A DNA stretch of 64,000 bases from an uncultured Aliarcobacter sp. (GCA_963664305.2 CAXXLV010000002.1:1440001-1504000); one strand, 5' to 3'. Shown: positions 5,457-34,231, numbered from the stretch's first letter. Program-made: numbers and translations. Notes: generated from the letters alone by a model not told the origin.

Positions 5457-7010
5457 TCAAACTTGATGTTCACAAGTTTTTGAAAGTCTCTCTTTTTGAG
5501 AAAGATATGAATTTAATGCACCAATGTAAGCTTTCGCAGTTGCTAACATCGTGTCAATACTTAATCCATGACCTACAAAGGCTGGACTTGTTGAATCAAA
5601 AGATACTCTTGTTGTAACTTTTGCTAAAGCATCTTTCCCTTCTGTTACAGAAATTACTTTGTAATCTTTTAATTCCCCATTGTATCCAGTAATTCTATCA
5701 ATTGTTTTAAATATTGCATCCATTGTTCCATCACCAATAGCTGCATCTTTGATTATTTCATCTTTATATTTAATAGCAACAGCAGCTGTTGGAACACCTG
5801 TTGTACAATCACTAATTTGTAAACCAATTAAATCATAAGTTTTATCATGATTTAAAGCTTCATCAGTGATTAACATTCTCACATCATCATCTGTAATCTC
5901 TTTTTTCTTATCCGCTAAAACTTTAAATCTTTCAAATGCTGAATTTAATTCTTCATCACTTACTTTATCAAATCCTAATTGAGCAATTTTATCTTTAAAT
6001 GCAGCACGTCCACTATGTTTTCCTAAGATTAAAGTACTATCTTTAATAACACCAACATCTTCAGGTCTCATAATTTCATAAGTTTCTTGATGTTTTAAAA
6101 CACCATCTTGGTGAATTCCACTTTCGTGAGAGAATGCATTTTTACCAACAATTGCTTTATTTTGTTGAGGCTCTACACCAGTTATTGTTGCAACTAATCT
6201 TGAAGTTGCATAAATTTCAGGAGTATTAATAGTTGTATATAAATCTCCAAATGCATCTTTTCTCGTTTTTATAGCCATAACTGCTTCTTCTAAAGCTGAA
6301 TTTCCAGCACGTTCTCCTAAACCATTTATTGTTACTTCAATTTGTCTAGCACCATTCATAACTGCTGCTAAAGTATTTGCTGTTGCTAATCCTAAATCGT
6401 TATGATTATGTACAGAAATAATAGCTCTATCACCAGCAAAATCACTTAATTCTTTTACCATTGCACCTAATTCTGTTGGTAATCTATATCCTACAGTATC
6501 TGGTAAATTAATAGTTCTTGCACCTGCTCCAATAACAGCATCCATCACTTCTTTCATAAAAGAGATTTCACTTCTTCCTGCATCTTCTAAAGAGAATTCA
6601 ACATCATCTACAAATGTTTTTGCATATTCTACTGCATGAATTGCTCTTCTAATAACTTCATCTGGAGCCATTTTTAATTTATATTTCATATGGATTGGCG
6701 ATGTTGCAATAAAAGTATGAACTCTGTGTTTTGGTGCTTTTGAAACAGCTAATCCAGCTTGTTTAATATCATTTTCAACTGCTCTTGCTAAAGAACAAAT
6801 ACTTGAATTTTTTACAATTTCTGCTATTCTACTTACTGCATCAAAATCCCCTGGACTTGCAGCTGCAAATCCTGCTTCTATTACATCAACACCTAATTTT
6901 TCTAATTGTAAAGCTACTTTTAATTTTTCTTCAGTGTTCATAGAACAACCAGGGCTTTGTTCACCATCTCTTAATGTTGTATCAAATACTATAATTTTAT
7001 TTTTATCCAT
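5457..7010 (-). CDS. leuA: 2-isopropylmalate synthase
   Basis: [35 protein letters not shown], regulatory C-terminal domain. Confidence 0.98.
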
Positions 7011-7118
7011 TGTATTAACCTTTTAAAATGTTATTAATTATATCTTTTTTTAAATAAAAAAAGAAAAACAGAGTTTTGATTATTTAGTTATAAATTATAA
7101 TTATAAAAGTTTATAATT

Positions 7119-7196
7119 TTAGAGAGAAAAAGAGAGAAGCAGAAGAGAGTTAACACTTTTTATGAAATGGTTTTTATAAAAATCAAATATTTTCAT
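7119..7196 (-). CDS. Putative leu leader peptide (25 aa, MKIFDFYKNHFIKSVNSLLLLSFSL)
   Basis: SD AAGGAG, ATG at 7196, four tandem Leu codons CTT CTG CTT CTC, between promoter and leuA. Confidence 0.75.
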   Translation of the reverse strand: MKIFDFYKNHFIKSVNSLLLLSFSL

Positions 7197-7230
7197 ATAT
7201 CTCTCCTTTTTTTGTTTTTTAAAGTAGTTA

Positions 7231-24766: not shown

Positions 24767-24808
24767 ATGAACAAAAATTCATATTTAATTCATTATAAGT
24801 TCATATTC
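24767..24808 (+). promoter_or_regulatory. Putative OmpR/PhoB-type operator: TTCAT repeats at 11-bp period
   Basis: TTCAT at 24778, 24789, 24800; inverted ATGAA at 24767. Confidence 0.6.
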
Positions 24809-24844: not shown

Positions 24845-25927
24845 TTGATTTCATATGCATTTAAAGCATTATTTGCAAATAAACTAAAAACTTTTTTAAT
24901 AATTTTAAGTTTAATATTTTCAATAGTATCAATCTTTTTAATTAGTTCTATTTCAAATGGAGTAATTTCTATGTACTCTTCAATGCTAAAAAGTGATGGA
25001 GATATCATTGTTACTCAAGCAAAAATATCTGATACATTTTTTTCAAATGTAAATATCAATTTAGTTGAAAAAATAAATAATTTAAAAGATATAAAAGATA
25101 CTTCTGCAATGACTGTGGGAGCTAGTCCTGTTGAAAAACTTCCAATTGTTGCAGTTTATGGCGTAACAAAAAATAGATTTAAAAACTATACTTTAATTGC
25201 TGGTAATTATCCTTCAAAAAATGAAGTTATTATTGGAAAATCTATTTTAGAACAACTTTTTAATAAAAATGAAATTCAAATTGCAAATAAAAGTTTCAAA
25301 ATCTCTGGAGTTTTTAAAAGTGAGATTGGTTTTGAAAATGGTGGAGTTGTTTTAAATATAGATGAAGCAGGAGAGATTTTTAATAAATCTGCTTCAATGA
25401 TTTTGGTAAATACAACTTTGAATTCTAATATTGAAAATATCATTAAAGATATAAAAAATTTATCAGATGAAATTGATGTTAAATCAACACAAAATTTTGT
25501 AGATAACTATAATCAATTTAAAATCATAAAAACCTCATCAAATGTTATTTCATTTATCGCATTTTCTATGGGGCTTCTTGGAATTGTAAGTCTTATGAGT
25601 ATTACAATAAATCAAAGAAAAGCTGAGTTTGGGATAAAAAGAGCATTAGGAATAAAAACATCAAAAATTGTTTATTCAATAATGGTTGAGAGCTTTTTAC
25701 TTGGAGTTTTCAGTTTCATTAGTGCTTTAATTATTTCAAATGTAACTCTATATTTTGTAAAAAATGCAAAAAGTTTACAAGGTTATGTAAATGGTGAAAT
25801 ATCTGTTGAACTAGCTTTTTATATCTTTGTTACTTCTATTTTTATGGCGATTATTGGTTCAATAATTCCAGCTTTAAATGCTGCAAAAACTGACCCAGTT
25901 GAGCTTATTCAAGGAAATAAAATATGA
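24845..25927 (+). CDS. MacB/FtsX-family ABC transporter permease
   Basis: N-terminal TM, periplasmic loop, QRKAEFGIKRALG, IPALNAAKTDPVE; TTG start with AAGGA SD. Confidence 0.92.
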   Translation: MISYAFKALFANKLKTFLIILSLIFSIVSIFLISSISNGVISMYSSMLKSDGDIIVTQAKISDTFFSNVNINLVEKINNLKDIKDTSAMTVGASPVEKLPIVAVYGVTKNRFKNYTLIAGNYPSKNEVIIGKSILEQLFNKNEIQIANKSFKISGVFKSEIGFENGGVVLNIDEAGEIFNKSASMILVNTTLNSNIENIIKDIKNLSDEIDVKSTQNFVDNYNQFKIIKTSSNVISFIAFSMGLLGIVSLMSITINQRKAEFGIKRALGIKTSKIVYSIMVESFLLGVFSFISALIISNVTLYFVKNAKSLQGYVNGEISVELAFYIFVTSIFMAIIGSIIPALNAAKTDPVELIQGNKI

Positions 25928-26547
25928 TAAAAACTTCAAATTTAACACATTATTACAACAAAGATTTAGCTTTAGAAAATATCAATTTAGAAATAAATAA
26001 AGGTGAATTTATTTGTTTAATTGGAGAAAGTGGAAGTGGAAAATCTACACTTTTATCACTTTTATCAACACTTTTAAAACCTACAAGTGGCGAACTATTT
26101 TTTGAAGGGAAAAACTATAAAGATATAAAAGATATTGATAATTTTAGAAAAACAAATATTGGTTTTATTTTTCAGTTTCATTATTTAATCAACTATTTAA
26201 CTGTTAAAGAAAATATAAAACTTGCAAATGAAAAAGCAACAAATGATGAGATTTATAATCTATTAAAAATTCTAAATATTGAAAATTTATTAGATAAATA
26301 TCCAAATGAAATTTCAGGTGGTCAAAAACAAAGAGTTGCAATTGCAAGAGCTTTGATAAACAAACCAAAAGTAATTATTGCAGATGAGCCAACAGGAAAT
26401 TTAGATTCTAAAAACTCTTTAAATGTTTTTGAGATATTAAAAAATTTAAGCGAAGAAGGAACAACAATAATTGTGGCGACTCACGACAAAGAACTAGCAA
26501 AATTTGCAAATAAAATTTATGAGGTAAAAGATGGAAAAATCAACTAA
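25924..26547 (+). CDS. ABC transporter ATP-binding protein (LolD/MacB-like)
   Basis: GESGSGKST, ISGGQKQRVAIARAL, ADEPTGNLD, THD. Confidence 0.95.
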   Translation: MIKTSNLTHYYNKDLALENINLEINKGEFICLIGESGSGKSTLLSLLSTLLKPTSGELFFEGKNYKDIKDIDNFRKTNIGFIFQFHYLINYLTVKENIKLANEKATNDEIYNLLKILNIENLLDKYPNEISGGQKQRVAIARALINKPKVIIADEPTGNLDSKNSLNVFEILKNLSEEGTTIIVATHDKELAKFANKIYEVKDGKIN

Positions 26548-28102
26548 TTTCGAACTTTTTATAAATAAACATTTCAAAATTTCTATTGCTTTTTTTGCTT
26601 TAGGACTATTTTTTGGAATTATTTATTCATTAAATTTATTGGGGCTTGTGATTGATTCACAAACGTTAAATCCAGTAAATATGAGAGCAATTCATATTAG
26701 TCTTATGCTTTATGGTTTTGTTCCTTTAATGCTTTCATATCTTCCTTTTTTACTAATAAATAAAGAAGTTGGAAGTTCACGTGAAGGTCTTAGATACTTA
26801 AATCTTTATACTATTATTTGGTATATCTTTTTAGTATTTATGGTTGTATCTTTACTTTTAGGAAAAAATAGAGGTTTAGCTTTTTATGATTTTGCTTATG
26901 AATTAAATTTCTTATTAGCATTTGCTGGATTATTCTATATTTTAGCTTTATACAAATTTATCAAACTTTATACTGTTCTTCCTTTATGGATAAAAGTATG
27001 TTTAAGAGTTGTGACAATTGCTCCATTTACACTATTAATTTTAATGAATCCAACTATTGGTCAAGTTGAAAGTACAGTATCTGGACCACATGGAGATAAT
27101 ACACTTGGAATGAGTTTAGCTTTAATTCCAATCTATTATTTAATAATCAAACTATTAAATGAGGGTGAATTTAAAGCTAGATGGAATATTTTATGGATTA
27201 TTCCAACAGTTTTTTATTTTGGTTCAGTTTTATATAGAATTTTTATTGGTCATCTTTCATACAACCAAGAGTGGTTTTTACAATATTTAACTCTTTTATA
27301 TGTTCCTCTTTTATATAGATGGTACAAAGATAGTAATATTAGTGATGTTGCTAAAAAAGCTCTATTAGTTTCTATTTTAGCTTTTTTATTTGTTGATGTT
27401 GAAGGAAATATAATTTTTATTCCTGAAATTAGATGGGTATTTCATAGAAATGATTTAATAGTTGCTCACGCTCATATTGCTATGGGAATTGGAGTATTTT
27501 TTATGGTTATTTCAATGTTTATAAATCATATCAAAGAACTACACAAAGATATATTTTTAAAAATCTATTTAGTTGGAATTATCGGAATTTTTACAGCTTT
27601 AAGTATCTCAGGATTTACACAAGCTGGATTTAACTCAATTCCAACTCATACACTTTGGATATTTAGAACTCTGTTTGGTTTAGTTGCATTTGGTTTTATA
27701 TTTGCTTTTATAAAACTTCAAACTTCATACTCAAAACTAGGATTTTATAATCTAATTGGAGTTTTAAGTGATGGATTAGGTGGTATTTCTTTAATCTTAT
27801 TTGCAAGTTTCTTATATCCTATTTTAGGATTTAGTTTTAGTGGAGTTTATGAATATGTTGTTTTTACGTTTGTTAGTATGACAGGGATTATTCACTATTT
27901 AGCTTTAAAAAATGAAGCTTATCAAATGATTTTAACTAAATTATCAGTGATTATTAGAGTATTTGCAAGTTCTATGTTTTTTGCCTTATATTCAAGTGGT
28001 AAACTTGAAATTGAAGCACTTATGATTTGCCTTTTTGATTTAACTTTTGTTTTCATTTATTTAATCTTTTTTTATGAAAAGGAGACTACATGCAAAGATT
28101 AA
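26531..28102 (+). CDS. Divergent heme-copper oxidase subunit I (CcoN-like) lacking the CuB His-His motif
   Basis: R52-A-I-H55, GPHGDN, VEG, FHRNDLIVAHAH match CcoN RPLH, GHN, FEG, SHYTDWTIGHVH by eye; no HH dipeptide. Confidence 0.75.
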   Translation: MEKSTNFELFINKHFKISIAFFALGLFFGIIYSLNLLGLVIDSQTLNPVNMRAIHISLMLYGFVPLMLSYLPFLLINKEVGSSREGLRYLNLYTIIWYIFLVFMVVSLLLGKNRGLAFYDFAYELNFLLAFAGLFYILALYKFIKLYTVLPLWIKVCLRVVTIAPFTLLILMNPTIGQVESTVSGPHGDNTLGMSLALIPIYYLIIKLLNEGEFKARWNILWIIPTVFYFGSVLYRIFIGHLSYNQEWFLQYLTLLYVPLLYRWYKDSNISDVAKKALLVSILAFLFVDVEGNIIFIPEIRWVFHRNDLIVAHAHIAMGIGVFFMVISMFINHIKELHKDIFLKIYLVGIIGIFTALSISGFTQAGFNSIPTHTLWIFRTLFGLVAFGFIFAFIKLQTSYSKLGFYNLIGVLSDGLGGISLILFASFLYPILGFSFSGVYEYVVFTFVSMTGIIHYLALKNEAYQMILTKLSVIIRVFASSMFFALYSSGKLEIEALMICLFDLTFVFIYLIFFYEKETTCKD

Positions 28103-29064
28103 TTTTAATATTTTTTATAGCAAGTGAATTGTGTTACTATTTACTAATAGCACAAACAGGTGTTGTTGAATACTTTTCATCAAATTTATTTTTAATAGCT
28201 CCTCTTCCAATTGGAGGAATTATTGGTTCAATATTAGTTTCATATATAAAAATAGATAACAAAAATAAAATATCTTTATTTTTAATTATTCAGTTAATTA
28301 TGAGTTTTATATATCCTCATTTTAATCTTCTAACACTATTTATTTTAGGATTTGCAGTTGGAAGTTTAGCTCCATTAATTATAAATGAAGTGAAAAAAAC
28401 TACATTTTTAGAACTTGGATTGGCATTGTCTTTATCATATGTAACAGGAACTATGCTTTTTAACTATGATGTATCACAAAGAGGATTTATTGCAATTGCA
28501 TTAACAACTATTACACTTATAGCTTCAAGATTTTTACCATCAAAAGATGATGAAAAAGAGTTTGACACAACAAATCATTCATTACTTATAATGATTTTAT
28601 GGGTATTTTTAGATTCAGCACTTTTTGAATCTTTATCAAGAGATTTAACTATTTCTATCTGGAGAGATGGATTTAGTTTTGAAATTGCTTTATTTCACGT
28701 AATTGGAGTTATATGTGCTTTATCGTTTAAAATTGAAAAAAATCAAAAAGAACTTTTGATTTTAACACTATTTGCACTTTCATATCTATTTTATTTTTTA
28801 AGGGAGGGATTTATTTTATCAATTATTTATCCATTCGTAATATCTTATTACAATGTGGTAATACTTCAAACTATTAGAAAAAAAGATTTTAAAACAATCT
28901 CATTTTATATGGTTCTAATAGGATGGATGGCTTCAGGTGGTGGGCTTTTTGTAGCCTTGGCAAATTTAATTCTTTTTGTTCCAATTACTCTTTTATTTGC
29001 GATTTTTAGAGTAATGACAAAAGAATATATACCAAACAATAAGGAGATAAAATGTTTAAATTAG
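28090..29064 (+). CDS. Polytopic membrane protein, possibly a divergent MFS fold
   Basis: About 11-12 hydrophobic segments in two halves with a polar linker. Confidence 0.7.
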   Translation: MQRLILIFFIASELCYYLLIAQTGVVEYFSSNLFLIAPLPIGGIIGSILVSYIKIDNKNKISLFLIIQLIMSFIYPHFNLLTLFILGFAVGSLAPLIINEVKKTTFLELGLALSLSYVTGTMLFNYDVSQRGFIAIALTTITLIASRFLPSKDDEKEFDTTNHSLLIMILWVFLDSALFESLSRDLTISIWRDGFSFEIALFHVIGVICALSFKIEKNQKELLILTLFALSYLFYFLREGFILSIIYPFVISYYNVVILQTIRKKDFKTISFYMVLIGWMASGGGLFVALANLILFVPITLLFAIFRVMTKEYIPNNKEIKCLN

Positions 29065-29573
29065 TTCTACTTTCAATTTTGAGTCTAGGTGCCTTTGCTA
29101 ATAGTTTAACTATAACTCAAGGTGAAATATCAGCACATACAGAAGTTTTTGGAGATAGCGAAATCAATCCAGCGACAAAAGAAGTAAAAGCAAATTTATC
29201 AATAGATGATAAAATTGAATCAATCAAAGGAAAAATCTTTTTTGATACATTAAGTCTTGTTAGTCAAAAAAAAGATAGAGATGCTCATATGTATGAATTA
29301 TTAAATGAGCCAAAATTCAAAACTATATCTTTTGATATAAAAAATATCGTAAAAAATGATACAAATTATGATATTAATGGTGTTGTAACATTAAACGGTG
29401 TTTCAAAAGATGTTACAGTAAAAAGTAATATAACAGAACAAAATAATCAAATTTTATTTGATGGTGGATTTTCATTTAATCTAACAGACTTTAATTTAGA
29501 ACCACCAACAATGTTCTTTTTAACAGTTAGAAATCAAATAGATATCTCTTACAAAATTGATTTAAAAAGATAA
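29052..29573 (+). CDS. YceI-family periplasmic protein
   Basis: Signal peptide, RDAHM, G..TLNGVSKDV, LTDFNLEPP. Confidence 0.88.
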   Translation: MFKLVLLSILSLGAFANSLTITQGEISAHTEVFGDSEINPATKEVKANLSIDDKIESIKGKIFFDTLSLVSQKKDRDAHMYELLNEPKFKTISFDIKNIVKNDTNYDINGVVTLNGVSKDVTVKSNITEQNNQILFDGGFSFNLTDFNLEPPTMFFLTVRNQIDISYKIDLKR

Positions 29574-29576
29574 ATT

Positions 29577-30032
29577 ATGTTAAAAAAACTTATATTATCA
29601 GTAATATTTATAAATTGTTTAAGCGCGGGAACTCTAAAAATAGACGATAAAATAAGTAATTTTTCATTAACTGATCAGTTTGATAAAATTCATACAATTA
29701 CATGTGACATTTCAACTATAATTGTAACTTTTCAAAAAAAGACTCTTATGATGGTAAATGATTATTTATCATCAAAGAGTGAAAACTTTTTAGAAAATCA
29801 TCATGCTATTTTCATAAATAATATTTCATCTAGTCCAACTATAATCACAAAAATGTTTACATTACCAAAACTAAGAGATTATAAATATACTATATTACTT
29901 ATTTATGATGAAAGTAATACAAAATTTGAAAAACAAAGTGACAAAATTACAACTTATTCTTTAGAAAATGGCTTTATCAAAAATATAAATTTTATATCTT
30001 CAATAGATGAATTAGACAGAGTTTTAAAATGA
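29577..30032 (+). CDS. Secreted hypothetical protein, possible thioredoxin-like/YtfJ-like fold without CxxC
   Basis: Signal peptide, FSLTDQFDK start typical of AhpC/TSA-like folds, ITKMFTLPKLR. Confidence 0.65.
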   Translation: MLKKLILSVIFINCLSAGTLKIDDKISNFSLTDQFDKIHTITCDISTIIVTFQKKTLMMVNDYLSSKSENFLENHHAIFINNISSSPTIITKMFTLPKLRDYKYTILLIYDESNTKFEKQSDKITTYSLENGFIKNINFISSIDELDRVLK

Positions 30033-30760
30033 ATTCTATTCCAAATGCAAATATTGTAGAAATAAATGTGGAAAATGAAAAATTAAATGATTTAAAAATT
30101 CTTCATTTAAGTGATTTACATATAAATAAAAAAACTTCTAAAAAAGAGATTTTAGATTTAGTAAATCATTGTAATAGTCTTGAATTTGACTTTTGTGTGA
30201 TTACAGGAGATATAATTGATACAAAAGTTAAATTTATTATAGAGCAACTTAAAATTCTAAATACTTTAAAAAATGAAGTTTTTTATATAAGTGGAAATCA
30301 TGATTTATTTTATGGTTTAGAAGATTTAAAAAAAGAGCTAACTAATTTCATTTTTATGGATAATGAAACTTTTAAAATTAACTATAAAAATGAGATTATA
30401 CATTTAGCAGGATTACCTGATAGATTTTCAAAATTTTTTAAAATAAAAAGAGATGAAAAGAAAATAGAAAATTATTTAAAAAATTCTCCTTCTATTTTTA
30501 TTTCTCACCAACCTAAAGATTATAAAATTGCAACAAATTCTGACTCAAATCTATTTTTATGTGGACATACCCACGGTGGACAGATTTATCCTTTTCATTA
30601 TTTAGTAAGACTTGTTCAACCTTTTTTAGCTGGATTATTTTATAAAAAAAACACTGCAATTTATGTAAATAAAGGTTTAGGATATTGGGGCGTAAATTTT
30701 AGGTATAAAGCCGATGCAGAAATCACTATATTGAAATTAATAACAAAAAGTGTAAAATAA
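30029..30760 (+). CDS. Metallophosphoesterase (YkuE/YaeI-like)
   Basis: SDLH, TGD, GNHD, SHQP, GHTHGGQ. Confidence 0.92.
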   Translation: MNSIPNANIVEINVENEKLNDLKILHLSDLHINKKTSKKEILDLVNHCNSLEFDFCVITGDIIDTKVKFIIEQLKILNTLKNEVFYISGNHDLFYGLEDLKKELTNFIFMDNETFKINYKNEIIHLAGLPDRFSKFFKIKRDEKKIENYLKNSPSIFISHQPKDYKIATNSDSNLFLCGHTHGGQIYPFHYLVRLVQPFLAGLFYKKNTAIYVNKGLGYWGVNFRYKADAEITILKLITKSVK

Positions 30761-30765
30761 TTTTC

Positions 30766-31434
30766 ATGAAAATATTAATAATTGAAGATGATATAAAAAT
30801 CATAAATTTTTTAAAAAAAGGTTTAGAAGAAGAGTGCTACATAGTTGATTTCTCAACAAATGGTGATGAGGGATTATATTTAGCTAGTGTTAACTCTTAT
30901 GACCTAATCTTACTTGATATTATGCTTCCTATAAAAGATGGAATTGAAGTATGTAAAAGTTTAAGAAGTTCAAATATTCAAACTCCTATAATAATGCTTA
31001 CTGCAAAAGATTCTATTGAAGATAAAATCAAAGGATTGGATATTGGAGCAAATGATTATTTAGCAAAACCTTTTTCATTTGCAGAATTACTTGCACGAAT
31101 TAGAGTTCAATTAAGAACTAATAGCGTAACACAAACAAAACTAACAATTGCAGATTTAGAACTTGATTTATTAAATAAAACAGCCACAAGAGCAAATGAA
31201 AATATAACTCTAACTGCAAAAGAGTTTTCACTTCTTGAATATCTAATAAAAAACAAAAATAGAGTTTTAAGTGAAACAACAATAAATGAGGCTCTTTCTT
31301 CTTTTGAAGATTCTAATATTAGTAATATTGTAAATGTTTATATTTATAGATTAAGAAATAAAATTGATAAAAATTTTGATAAAAAATTAATCAAAACGAT
31401 CAGAGGAATAGGATTTAAAATCAGTGAAGATTAA
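30766..31434 (+). CDS. OmpR-family response regulator (CusR/CzcR-like)
   Basis: IEDD, LDIMLP, MLTAKD, KPF, winged helix VYIYRLRNK...TIRGIGF. Confidence 0.95.
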   Translation: MKILIIEDDIKIINFLKKGLEEECYIVDFSTNGDEGLYLASVNSYDLILLDIMLPIKDGIEVCKSLRSSNIQTPIIMLTAKDSIEDKIKGLDIGANDYLAKPFSFAELLARIRVQLRTNSVTQTKLTIADLELDLLNKTATRANENITLTAKEFSLLEYLIKNKNRVLSETTINEALSSFEDSNISNIVNVYIYRLRNKIDKNFDKKLIKTIRGIGFKISED

Positions 31435-32800
31435 TTTAACAATCAAAAAGAAACTTTTAACTTATCACTTTCTTATTCAAACTTTAGTTTTAATGATTTT
31501 TTCATTTTCATTATATAAGGCTTTAGAAGTTTCAACTACAGATAAACTTGAAGCTACTTTAAAAGTTATCATTCTTGATATAACTGATGATATTTTAGAA
31601 AAAGATAAAATCACAGATAATGTTTTAGATGAAGAGAAAGAGTATAAATTTGAACCTTTATATATTAGAATTTTAGATAATAAAACTCACAAAAAAATAA
31701 CACAAACAAGTAATTTTCCAGATAATATAGAACATGATGACAATTATTTAAATGTTTTAAAAGAAAATATCGTAACTTTTGAAAAACAAAACAACTATTT
31801 AGTAAGTAGGATAAAAATAGATTTCCATGGTGAACAAACAATCATTATTGAAGCTGTAACAACAAAAGATATGCTAACTTCAACATTAGAAAACTTACTA
31901 TATATTTTTTATTTTATACTTCCAATAGTTCTTATTTTTGCAGTAATTGGTGGAAACTTTATAATCTATAAATCATTTTCACCAATTGAAAATATTTTAT
32001 TTGAGCTAAAACAGATAAATGCAAATGATTTATCAGCAAGATTAAAAGAGACAAAAACAAAAGATGAAATTTATCAACTAATAAAAGAAGTTAATAATCT
32101 TCTATCTCGTTTAGAAAACTCTTTTGAAAGAATTTCGCAATTCAGTTCAGATGCTTCTCATGAGTTAAAAACTCCCCTTACAATAATAAAAGGTGAAATA
32201 GAAGTAGCGTTGAGAAAAGATAGAACTATAAATGAATATAAAGATTCATTAAAAACTTCTCTAAATGAGATTTGTATAATCGAACAAACGATAAATGATT
32301 TACTTTTCTTAGCTAAAAATGAAAAAGATTTAATAGTTGATAAACAAGAAGAGTTTTATTTAGATGAATTGACAGATGAAGCAATCAACGAGCTTAGAAA
32401 TTTTGCAAAACTTCATAAAGTAGAAACAACTCTTTTAATTGAAGATAGTATAGAACTAAAAGGTTTCCCAAATTTATTAAAAATAGCCATCAAAAATGCT
32501 TTAAAAAATGCTATTCAATTTAGTCATGAAAATTCTGAAGTTATTGTAAAAATATTTAAGAAAGAGAATCTTTTAAATATTTCAATACAAGATTTTGGAA
32601 TTGGTATTCCTTTAAATGAACAAAATAAAATATTTGAAAAATTTTATAGAACAGATAAAAGTAGGAATAAAAATTCTGGTGGGACAGGTCTTGGAATGTC
32701 AATTTTAAAAAAGATTGTTGATATTCATAAAGGTGAAATAAATATAAAAAGTATAGAAAATTCAGGTACAACAATTAGCTTATCATTTCCTATAAAATAA
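31424..32800 (+). CDS. Sensor histidine kinase (CusS/CzcS-like, HAMP)
   Basis: FSSDASHELKTPL, DFGIGI, FYRTDKSR, GTGLG. Confidence 0.94.
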   Translation: MKINLTIKKKLLTYHFLIQTLVLMIFSFSLYKALEVSTTDKLEATLKVIILDITDDILEKDKITDNVLDEEKEYKFEPLYIRILDNKTHKKITQTSNFPDNIEHDDNYLNVLKENIVTFEKQNNYLVSRIKIDFHGEQTIIIEAVTTKDMLTSTLENLLYIFYFILPIVLIFAVIGGNFIIYKSFSPIENILFELKQINANDLSARLKETKTKDEIYQLIKEVNNLLSRLENSFERISQFSSDASHELKTPLTIIKGEIEVALRKDRTINEYKDSLKTSLNEICIIEQTINDLLFLAKNEKDLIVDKQEEFYLDELTDEAINELRNFAKLHKVETTLLIEDSIELKGFPNLLKIAIKNALKNAIQFSHENSEVIVKIFKKENLLNISIQDFGIGIPLNEQNKIFEKFYRTDKSRNKNSGGTGLGMSILKKIVDIHKGEINIKSIENSGTTISLSFPIK

Positions 32801-32984: not shown

Positions 32985-33012
32985 AAAGGGCTCTATTTAG
33001 GAGCCCTTTTTT
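32985..33012 (+). terminator. Intrinsic terminator, probably bidirectional
   Basis: aaagggctc-tatttag-gagcccttt plus T-run. Confidence 0.85.
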
Positions 33013-33013
33013 A

Positions 33014-34231
33014 TTAGTCATTAAAAACTATATCTATTGCATTTATTATATCAATATCAATTTTATAATCACTTAGATTTTTTCTTAAAATTGATATAGC
33101 TTGATTATGAGACATTGAGTTTCTATATGGTCTATCCTCAACTAAAGCTTGATAAAAATCTAAACATGAAACGATTCTTTCTTCAAGTCCCAATTCATTT
33201 GAAGTTAAACCAAAAGGATAACCTGAACCGTCAAGTTTTTCATGGTGGGCTGATGCCCATTTTGTAATATCACTAAAATTATCTATTTTACTTAATATTA
33301 AATGTGTTAAATAAGCATGTTTTTTTATCTCAAAAAGTTCTTTTTGTGATAAACTGCCCTCTTTATCTAAAATTGTATTTGGAGTTCCAAGTTTTCCAAT
33401 ATCATGTAAATTTGATGCTATTTGGATTTTTAATTTTGTTTCTTCATCTAAATTAAAATATTCCACAAGTCTTAAAGATTTTTCTTCTAAATCAACAGAA
33501 TGTTTTGCCGTAAATTTTGATTTTCCATCAATTATTTTTGAAAATATTTTTGTAATTGATAAAAATTTATCCAAAGAAACATCTATCGCAAAATTTGGTA
33601 ATATTTTTTCTAAAGGATTTACTTCATCAAAAAACTCTAAATCTCCCCAAAATAAAAAAGAATTAGATAAAGTTTTATAAACATCAACAATTTGTGTTGA
33701 AAAAAGCTTTTTCTCATTTTCTAAAACAAAAGCTAAAATCAACTCTTTTTTATCATAACAAATATTTGATAATTCAAAAGTTGTATCTAAAGTATCTGCA
33801 AATGAGATTAATTGAGCAAATAAGGGAATTTCATCTGCTTTCTTTCCAAAAAGACCAGAACCATCATAATTTTCATGATGATAAAGAATTATATCTTTTT
33901 GTTTAGTTAGAAAAGGAAATTCTTTTATATTATTTTCTCCAATTGAGCAGTGTTCTGAAAAATTAACAAAGTTAAAATAGTCCTCTTTTTTATTTAATTC
34001 GGATTGTGAAGTAAAATTACAAAAACTCTCTATCAAACCATTATCATGCAATAAAGAGTATGAGCATAAATCAAATTTATCTTCATCACTCAGGCCAATT
34101 ATTTCTGCCATTTTTAAACAAATATACGCAACTCTTTTACTATGTTTTGAAGAGGTACATTTTATTTCACTTTCGGCTAAATCTAAAGCAAATGATATTG
34201 AAAATAGAAATTTATTGAGGCTAAGTGTCAT
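33014..34231 (-). CDS. Tandem HD/HD-GYP domain protein
   Basis: LLHDNG...HHENYDGSG and LHDIGK...HHEKLDGSGYP. Confidence 0.9.
   Translation of the reverse strand: MTLSLNKFLFSISFALDLAESEIKCTSSKHSKRVAYICLKMAEIIGLSDEDKFDLCSYSLLHDNGLIESFCNFTSQSELNKKEDYFNFVNFSEHCSIGENNIKEFPFLTKQKDIILYHHENYDGSGLFGKKADEIPLFAQLISFADTLDTTFELSNICYDKKELILAFVLENEKKLFSTQIVDVYKTLSNSFLFWGDLEFFDEVNPLEKILPNFAIDVSLDKFLSITKIFSKIIDGKSKFTAKHSVDLEEKSLRLVEYFNLDEETKLKIQIASNLHDIGKLGTPNTILDKEGSLSQKELFEIKKHAYLTHLILSKIDNFSDITKWASAHHEKLDGSGYPFGLTSNELGLEERIVSCLDFYQALVEDRPYRNSMSHNQAISILRKNLSDYKIDIDIINAIDIVFND

Follow-up and report, generated by a model that had tools for sequence, protein, structure and literature searches.

A nine-gene operon in a 64,000-nucleotide stretch of DNA from an uncultured Aliarcobacter sp. 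(GCA_963664305.2 CAXXLV010000002.1:1440001-1504000; the whole stretch is hereafter called the window) is tentatively interpreted here as a self-regulated envelope-stress operon of the Campylobacterota that is co-regulated with the modification of lipid A. This reading, which we consider possible rather than probable, draws on the order of the genes and its conservation, on the folds of the encoded proteins, on the conservation of ligand residues and on a common promoter box. The third gene of the operon encodes a predicted relative of subunit I of the heme-copper oxidases, in which the ligands of both hemes are kept and those of the second metal are lost.

The operon consists of nine co-oriented open reading frames (ORFs; g1 to g9) on the + strand at 24845-32800, each of which overlaps the next (by 4, 17, 13, 13, 4 and 11 bp) or lies at most 5 bp away from it (gaps of 3 and 5 bp), exactly at the coordinates given in an original prediction made from the DNA alone. 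The genes, which include those of an ATP-binding cassette (ABC) transporter and of a protein with the fold of the major facilitator superfamily (MFS), and the elements accompanying them are as follows.

24767-24804, + strand: putative response-regulator box, a palindrome ATGAA-N6-TTCAT followed by two TTCAT half-sites with 11-bp spacing
24845-25927, + strand: g1, MacB-type (type VII) ABC permease with periplasmic core domain and C-terminal FtsX domain (PF12704, PF02687)
25924-26547, + strand: g2, ABC ATPase of the LolD/FtsE/MacB kind (PF00005)
26531-28102, + strand: g3, heme-copper-oxidase subunit I-like protein, near NorB of the nitric oxide reductase cNOR and CcoN of the cbb3 oxidase (by fold; weak PF00115 match)
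28090-29064, + strand: g4, compact MFS-fold membrane protein of 324 residues (by fold; without Pfam or NCBIfam family)
29052-29573, + strand: g5, divergent periplasmic YceI-family lipocalin with signal peptide (PF04264)
29577-30032, + strand: g6, small secreted protein, accessory member of the cluster (no family match, no conserved cysteine)
30029-30760, + strand: g7, metallophosphoesterase (PF00149)
30766-31434, + strand: g8, OmpR-class response regulator of the CusR/CopR/HprR group (Response_reg and Trans_reg_C domains)
31424-32800, + strand: g9, sensor histidine kinase of the CusS/CopS group (HAMP, HisKA and HATPase_c domains)
32985-33009, + strand: terminator-like hairpin (10 base pairs, of which 5 are G-C) with a T run behind it, between g9 and a convergent HD-domain gene

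The MacB-like permease, the ATPase, the YceI protein, the metallophosphoesterase, the OmpR-type regulator and the kinase of the original prediction were borne out by Pfam and NCBIfam domain calls, and its CcoN-like and MFS-like membrane proteins were recovered at the level of the fold. The G+C content of the operon region is ~25%, the same as that of its surroundings, and thus gives no sign of a recent import. Since two terminator-like sites were found in 8.5 kb where 1.0 would be expected, the hairpin is a pattern match only.

The protein encoded by g3 matched PF00115 with an E-value of 5.2e-5 and 22.7 bits, which is below the gathering cut-off of 34.8, and 30 of the 34 members of the g3 family matched this profile at E <=1 (best E 5.6e-12). 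Sequence searches against solved structures, both with the single protein and with a profile, gave no match, and g3 was placed by fold comparison only. Its AlphaFold model, based on a 34-row alignment, has a mean predicted local distance difference test score (pLDDT) of 84.4 and a predicted template modelling (TM) score (pTM) of 0.86. The best Foldseek hits of this model were CcoN chains of cbb3 oxidases (3mk7_A, E 2.3e-5, TM-score 0.57/0.63), followed by NorB. According to the model, residues 1-396 form the twelve-helix core of the subunit I fold and residues 397-523 form four extra helices without counterpart, which carry Y406, D414, H455, R476 and D503, all invariant in the 34 sequences.

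The residues R52, H55, H305, H313, H315 and H455 are invariant in the same 34 sequences and H187 is nearly so. They were mapped onto the canonical CcoN of the same genome, which is encoded in a separate ccoN-ccoO arrangement. The motif R52-x-x-H55 of g3 aligns with RLRPLH of CcoN helix II, and FHRNDLIVAHAH aligns with AHFTDWIPGHVH of helix X, placing H313 and H315 opposite GHVH (HxH motif). The GPHGDN loop of g3 aligns with the FGHNA region of helix VI, with H187 lying in the helix VI region. The helix VII stretch retains Y..EW..Q and lacks the HH pair; a single histidine occurs at the position of the pair in 4 of 11 sequences, the remainder carrying E, K, N, T or G there. No conserved tyrosine was detected in the family alignment of these 11 sequences at the C-family cross-link position upstream of the helix VII site. 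The motifs were assigned to heme b, heme b3 and CuB on the basis of the published cbb3 structure.

Judged from these residues g3 is a repurposed heme-copper-oxidase scaffold which has kept the predicted low-spin and high-spin heme ligands and has lost the CuB/FeB pair as well as the cross-link tyrosine. Both the lack of a CuB site and the reuse of an oxidase scaffold, as originally proposed, are therefore in line with the retained fold and the residue conservation. The conservation of the ligands further suggests that g3 is a diheme b-type membrane protein. In the parts of PMC11214002 drawn on here, the active-site histidines are described as conserved in all families, with gNOR replacing only one of them; measured against these parts, the g3 branch, whose sequences appear to have lost two active-site histidines, lies outside the families described.

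The least confident segments of the g3 model (183-190 and 304-312) are its most conserved loops, which would be compatible with sites that become ordered only when a cofactor or partner is present. The predicted complex of g3 and g4 scored 0.00 in both runs, which were made without controls, and counts neither for nor against binding. A further divergent CcoN-like group (P0190/P0192) shows AHAH helix X and RxxxH helix II motifs as in g3, together with an HGH..HH cluster in the helix VII region; it has no GPHGDN loop, and P0192 is also C-terminally extended.

The distribution of g3 was analysed in the family to which the window belongs (121 genomes of 22 genera) and in a wide scan of one genome per prokaryotic species, which yielded 203 encoding stretches, 80 loci of which were kept for the synteny counts; in these loci genes were counted only where the contig leaves room around g3. 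Within the family g3 was found in 50/121 genomes and 12/22 genera, nearly always as a single copy, and its nearest relatives carry the names Arcobacter, Aliarcobacter, Malaciobacter, Halarcobacter and Poseidonibacter. The protein family is small: among 1.84 billion cluster representatives 69 proteins matched at E <=0.001, few of them at full length, the remotest clear member being 39% identical. The longest match comprised 572 residues, and none of the 69 was a fusion of g3 with a YceI domain. The 80 kept loci are titled Arcobacteraceae, Sulfurospirillum, Sulfurimonas, Helicobacteraceae, Nitratifractor or have generic names, apart from one titled Paceibacteria (JBGSBO010000002.1), which carries the whole operon. 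As the GlmS, SuhB and GroEL flanks of that contig are 83-93% identical to those of the window, with 89-93% for GlmS and GroEL, it was probably mis-binned. The g3 family was thus found in Campylobacterota only.

In the 20 family loci that were cut out the order from g1 to g9 is constant and the flanking genes vary; the two-component system follows downstream in 18/20 and g6 is present in 15/20. In the wider set g2 lies directly upstream of g3 in 73/73 loci, g1 lies upstream of it in 65/65 and g4 directly downstream in 70/73, while neither ccoO, ccoP nor norC was found beside g3. The gene g5 is present in 68/71 loci, g7 in 57/68, g6 in 49/68 and an orthologous two-component system in 43/61. In two rearranged loci (L106, L109) g1-g2-g3 and g4-g5 shift as blocks. 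Due to these counts and block moves g1-g5 is regarded as the core of the operon, in which g3 is bound most tightly to the ABC genes. This arrangement is conserved far beyond chance, so that the genes do form a unit as predicted, and the survey of the gene neighbourhoods found no g3 homolog in an unrelated context.

No further gene recurs in the flanks of 10 distant loci, with the following exceptions. Two Arcobacteraceae loci (L054, L068) share a second metallophosphoesterase, membrane-anchored and paralogous to g7, and a YgbA_NO-family gene a few kb upstream of the operon, as well as a divergent bipA beside g1. L054, a Halarcobacter metagenome-assembled genome, additionally has a cytochrome b561 gene (6557-7213) directly upstream of g1. 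The Sulfurimonas flanks hold unrelated kinases. In the window itself the convergent gene at 33014-34231 (- strand), which accompanies the operon in its closest relatives only, encodes a protein of 405 residues with HD_5/HD-GYP-like domains, whose best NCBIfam match is a NosR-family cyclic di-GMP phosphodiesterase regulator, far under the cut-off. One family genome (L168, G048 C1:2487035-2492061) carries a second, truncated module that comprises g1 and breaks off after residue 119 of g2; its promoter matches that of loci of another genus (L067, L070, L072) letter for letter, and the truncated copy may be a remnant of horizontal transfer. In a record of Sulfurospirillum cavolei (L099:9001-10528) the g3 match contains three in-frame stops, which a frameshift, a pseudogene or an error of the draft assembly could explain.

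The best NCBIfam matches of the regulator g8 and the kinase g9 were the heavy-metal subfamilies TIGR01387 (254.2 bits, cut-off 279.2) and TIGR01386 (246.4 bits, cut-off 292.55), both below the curated cut-offs. For g8, HprR reached 232.9 bits and PmrA 180.7 bits against a cut-off of 330; for g9, PmrB reached 133.2 bits against 314. The periplasmic part of g9 contains E70-x-x-E73, each glutamate being conserved in at least 95% of 46 aligned kinases. An ExxE motif is described for ColS and RaxH in the parts of PMC8306577 used here, according to which the zinc-responsive ColRS controls eptA and lpxE.

The putative box upstream of g1 starts with the palindrome ATGAACAAAAATTCAT at 24767-24782 and as a whole lies 41-78 bp upstream of the gene. 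Six bases separate its pentamer half-sites, as in the E. coli CusR site TGACAAnnTTGTCAT cited by PMC11195947, and this spacing fits the family membership of g8, whose binding to the site is predicted. The same architecture occurs at the same place in Arcobacteraceae loci, and a shorter TTCAT-N6-TTCAT repeat is found there in Sulfurospirillum, Sulfurimonas and Nitratifractor. This conserved CusR-type box before g1 supports the self-regulation that had been suggested for the operon.

Exact copies of the triple TTCAT repeat occur only twice in the 2.78 Mb genome, at the operon and at C1:706033 upstream of eptA; allowing one mismatch adds a third site, which is located within an ORF. The composite box, defined as the palindrome plus one repeat, was matched 7 times in five genomes (control 0) and 58 times in the 121 family genomes (control 2). 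Most of these 58 matches (42, representing 40 distinct promoters) are located ~1.75 kb upstream of g3 and thus at g1 promoters. Seven precede genes for membrane-anchored sulfatase-family, phosphoethanolamine-transferase-like enzymes, one precedes the truncated second g1-g2 copy, one a methyltransferase gene, and one has no assigned location.

The second target of the box in the genome of the window, eptA, was identified with 612.8 bits to NF028537, which is over the cut-off. Downstream of it come a PAP2 phosphatase gene and dgkA, the stop codon of one gene overlapping the start codon of the next (C1:706022-708750). By its gene content eptA-PAP2-dgkA is a classical lipid A phosphoethanolamine-modification unit. 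The occurrence of the same box before such transferase genes supports the envelope role that had been assumed for the operon. The functions originally suggested within that role (redox, detoxification, lipid or quinone modification) span a wide range, and each of them is a candidate only. A divergent bipA/typA gene lies upstream of the eptA unit. Directly past it (C1:708838-713082) genes for a DUF1924 protein, a diheme cytochrome c, a cytochrome b561, a second diheme cytochrome c and a small ORF were found, together with an OmpR-class regulator and a kinase of their own.

The permease gene g1 begins with a TTG start codon, 8 nt upstream of which AAGGA is found. Its product matched PF12704 (MacB_PCD, E 2.8e-17) and PF02687 (FtsX, E 4.2e-15), and remained under the cut-offs of all NCBIfam subfamilies concerned (lolCE 45.7 vs 362 bits, MacB 38.7 vs 966, FtsX 16.3 vs 255). 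The ATPase g2 matched PF00005 (ABC_tran) with an E-value of 2.7e-38, its nearest subfamily being LolD (TIGR02211, 207 bits, cut-off 307.75). By these matches g1-g2 is a MacB-type (type VII) ABC transporter with its cognate ATPase outside the named subfamilies at NCBIfam cut-offs, and no gene for a MacA-like adaptor was detected in the operon.

The g4 family has no Pfam or NCBIfam match, and the MFS profiles of Pfam were matched by none of 31 homologs. The AlphaFold2 model of g4 (pLDDT 91.5) is MFS-like, with 12 helices in two six-helix bundles within only 324 residues, and Foldseek returned VMAT2, LmrP and NorA at TM-scores of ~0.6 and E-values of ~1e-4 to 1e-5 (VMAT2, 8wvg_A, E 2.1e-5, TM-score 0.62; LmrP, 6t1z, TM-score 0.64). 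The polar residues E13, Q22, E27, D175, E180, R184 and H203 are membrane-embedded and invariant, and homologs of g4 are confined to g3 loci. Some homologs carry the label of a Brp/Blh beta-carotene 15,15'-dioxygenase from the Joint Genome Institute. The Brp/Blh family requires several iron-binding histidines, and this assignment was rejected, as no such Pfam match was obtained in 31 members and H203 is the sole invariant histidine. With regard to a copper importer similar to CcoA, no Met/His motifs were seen in the g4 alignment.

The YceI protein g5, whose signal peptide was read from the sequence, matched PF04264 with an E-value of 1.3e-16 and 61.7 bits (cut-off 23.7), compared with 157 and 154 bits for the two other YceI genes of the genome. 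These two canonical genes are found in C1:842500-848500 and C1:885000-891000. One directly follows an AcrB-family pump gene and is next to a MATE gene; the other belongs to a cluster of MarR, LigB dioxygenase, flavin mononucleotide reductase and pirin genes. The genome has four matches to PF01292 (cytochrome b561), none of which is beside a YceI gene or in the operon.

For g6 a secreted protein with a thioredoxin-like fold had been proposed. Secretion is predicted from an N-terminal signal peptide recognised by reading of the sequence, while the fold was not confirmed: no Pfam, NCBIfam or PDB sequence match and no conserved cysteine were found in the g6 family, and the YtfJ_HI0045 cluster (0.90) and the AhpC-TSA cluster (0.89, 22% of members) of the Atlas are leads only. 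The calcineurin-like metallophosphoesterase g7 (PF00149, E 6.2e-14) was compared with YaeI (84.5 bits) and LpxG (81.5 bits), both of which were rejected as far under their family cut-offs. Since its sequence contains neither a signal peptide nor a membrane anchor, g7 is probably cytoplasmic.

The envelope-stress reading can be formulated as a sequence of steps, in which the signal, the regulon, the binding of heme, all substrates and the redox role are proposed. The g8/g9 system would sense an insult at the cell surface, most likely a cationic or metal one, via its periplasmic ExxE as in PmrB/ColS, and g8 would then activate its own operon and eptA-PAP2-dgkA elsewhere in the genome through the palindrome-plus-direct-repeat box. 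The lipocalin g5 might carry a hydrophobic ligand such as an isoprenoid quinone, a damaged lipid or an amphipathic toxin, and g3 could exchange electrons with this ligand or with the quinone pool. The ABC (g1-g2) and MFS (g4) transporters would clear the inner membrane of the hydrophobic substrate.

The redox step is modelled on the proposal for BcnA-LcoA. According to PMC9113575, this system of Burkholderia cenocepacia and many Gram-negatives consists of a YceI lipocalin linked or fused to the diheme cytochrome b561; bcnA is induced by polymyxin B and by oxidative and other bactericidal stress, mutants show more peroxidation of membrane lipids, which the system limits, and the cytochrome is proposed to re-reduce the lipocalin-bound quinone. 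Because the YceI gene travels here with another diheme membrane protein, an LcoA-like function would be the most economical role for g3; as a specific assignment drawn from this analogy it nevertheless seems rather doubtful.

Several observations weigh against the envelope-stress reading. The profile-profile alignment of g3 and CcoN (hhalign) is weak, with a probability of 18% and an E-value of 0.0013, due to which the residue mapping is based on the agreement of motifs, MAFFT alignment and fold. The genome carries cytochrome b561 genes of its own, so that g3 would be no simple replacement of LcoA. The adjacent two-component system is missing in Sulfurospirillum and Sulfurimonas loci (18/61), and by their sequences g8 and g9 are closer to copper/silver sensors than to PmrAB, so that the signal could simply be metal. 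The palindrome alone is not enriched (1 vs 0.54 expected in the window; 18 vs 12 control sites in the genome), 6 of the 58 composite-box matches fall within coding regions, and the extent of the regulon is predicted from a DNA motif only. Neither g6 nor the cytoplasmic phosphoesterase g7 is given a role by this reading. Finally, the search for RNA found 16 runs (1 recorded as RNA, 15 guessed) which contained 5-12% of the sampled words, and the four runs that were aligned proved to be Logan metagenome contigs of 129-690 bases, mostly 90-95% alike, which bear on neither co-transcription nor induction. A few Logan contigs span g5/g6 (records 23, 29), although contigs cannot demonstrate a transcript.

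Metal homeostasis appears to be an unlikely alternative. In this scenario a CusRS-like system would respond to Cu, Ag, Zn or Fe, the ABC and MFS proteins would move the metal or a chelate, and g3 would oxidise, reduce or sequester metal in the membrane. The heavy-metal subfamilies as best matches of g8 and g9, the resemblance of the box to the CusR palindrome, the periplasmic ExxE, which is a metal-binding motif in PmrB/ColS, and the MFS copper importer CcoA, which serves cbb3 oxidases according to literature abstracts, are all consistent with it. However, the scores of g8 and g9 remain under the curated cut-offs, no Met-, His- or Cys-rich motifs were seen in g4, g5 and g6, and the copper ligands of the scaffold are exactly the part lost in g3. 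Furthermore, the cluster contains no gene for CopA, CusCBA or a multicopper oxidase, and the other genes preceded by the box encode lipid-modifying transferases instead of metal pumps.

A role in lipid or glycolipid trafficking, in which the MacB-type transporter would extract a lipid or isoprenoid like LolCDE, the YceI protein would be a LolA-like carrier, and g7 and g4 would process or flip a precursor, seems somewhat less likely still. Although the best subfamily matches of g1 and g2 are LolCE and LolD, g7 distantly resembles LpxG and YaeI, and YceI lipocalins bind isoprenoid quinones (PMC9113575), all scores to LolCE, LolD, LpxG and YaeI are far under the family cut-offs. The presumed co-regulation with eptA-PAP2-dgkA and other sulfatase-family transferases would agree with such a function, which on the other hand provides no role for g3, the most constant partner of the ABC genes. 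In addition, g7 is without membrane anchor and missing in 11/68 loci, and the presence of the module in only 50/121 family genomes speaks against a housekeeping task.

It is improbable, though compatible with the evidence, that g3 represents a quinol-driven membrane enzyme without second metal and thereby a new catalytic kind in the heme-copper oxidase superfamily. Its high-spin heme, with H187 as distal base, would then reduce lipid hydroperoxides or quench lipid peroxyl radicals, or alternatively g3 would redox-cycle a quinone held by the YceI protein. The four extra helices with the invariant H455, R476, D414 and D503 would supply the quinol site, and g3 would form a fixed assembly with the MacB-type ABC transporter, which would remove damaged lipid.

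The detoxification of heme or porphyrin is considered very improbable. HrtBA of Gram-positives, with HssRS, provides the analogy of a MacB-type pump that expels heme from the membrane, and g3 would serve as heme sink or sensor. The adaptor-less MacB-type ABC transporter next to an OmpR-class two-component system and the two conserved, predicted heme-binding sites of g3 resemble this situation, but the 10 flanks examined contain no genes for heme uptake or degradation, the regulon points to lipid A modification, and the YceI and MFS proteins would remain unexplained. That g3 is a working NO or O2 reductase or an NO binder with an unusual active site in respiration or nitrosative stress has the least to recommend it of all, since two of the three active-site histidines are not conserved (these being kept in all families except gNOR, with its one change, in the portions of PMC11214002 considered) and the tyrosine is absent, no NorC, CcoO or CcoP gene is adjacent, and the genome has a separate canonical CcoN.

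The envelope-stress reading would assemble parts of known kinds in a combination that had originally not been recognised as a described pathway, and our literature searches found no published description of the combination or of a CuB-less oxidase relative, although the family datasets of PMC11214002 and the synteny in S1 Fig of PMC9113575 could still mention them. The CuB-less NorB/CcoN branch, its fixed coupling to the ABC transporter and YceI protein and its presumed co-regulation with eptA appear to be undescribed. A heme that is paired with a second metal is the defining feature of heme-copper oxidases and NO reductases. If the reading is true, a conserved branch with both hemes and no second metal that is coupled to an ABC exporter and a lipocalin, and not to cytochrome c subunits, would be a respiratory scaffold reused for the protection of the envelope. 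It would also be a second, independent pairing of a YceI protein with a cytochrome; the function of this pairing, so far poorly understood, could then be tested by comparing the two instances. Arcobacter and its relatives include emerging pathogens transmitted by food and water, and in this group the box would define a candidate regulon that joins lipid A modification with a further defence module.

Compared with known systems, the transporter shares with MacAB-TolC, LolCDE, FtsEX and HrtBA a four-helix permease with periplasmic core domain and an ATPase that is a separate protein. It differs from them in the lack of a MacA-like adaptor gene, in being tied to a heme protein, and in reaching none of the family cut-offs. 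With CcoN of the cbb3 oxidases and NorB of cNOR, g3 has the subunit I fold and the heme histidines in common; in contrast to them it has lost the helix VII histidine pair and the cross-link tyrosine, is always found behind ABC genes instead of with genes for CcoO, CcoP or NorC, possesses four additional C-terminal helices and scores below the PF00115 gathering threshold.

The periplasmic ExxE of the sensor and the apparent control of eptA with a PAP2 gene are reminiscent of PmrAB, ColRS and RaxHR as presented in the excerpts of PMC8306577. By sequence, however, g8, g9 and the DNA box belong to the CusRS/CopRS/HprRS group, orthology to PmrAB is not supported by the PmrA and PmrB scores given above, and the main target is the own operon, with 40 distinct promoters versus 7 transferase promoters.

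With BcnA-LcoA the operon shares a gene for a secreted YceI protein paired with a gene for a membrane protein expected to hold two b hemes. Moreover, the Burkholderia system is induced by polymyxin B, and the operon described here is tied by its box to the phosphoethanolamine modification of lipid A, a classical defence against polymyxin and cations. The two differ in the heme partner, which is a NorB/CcoN-like protein of 523 residues here and the four-helix cytochrome b561 there, a b561 gene adjoining the operon in only one of 10 flanks (L054). Beyond this, the operon of the Campylobacterota adds a MacB-type ABC transporter, an MFS-fold protein, a phosphoesterase and its own two-component system.

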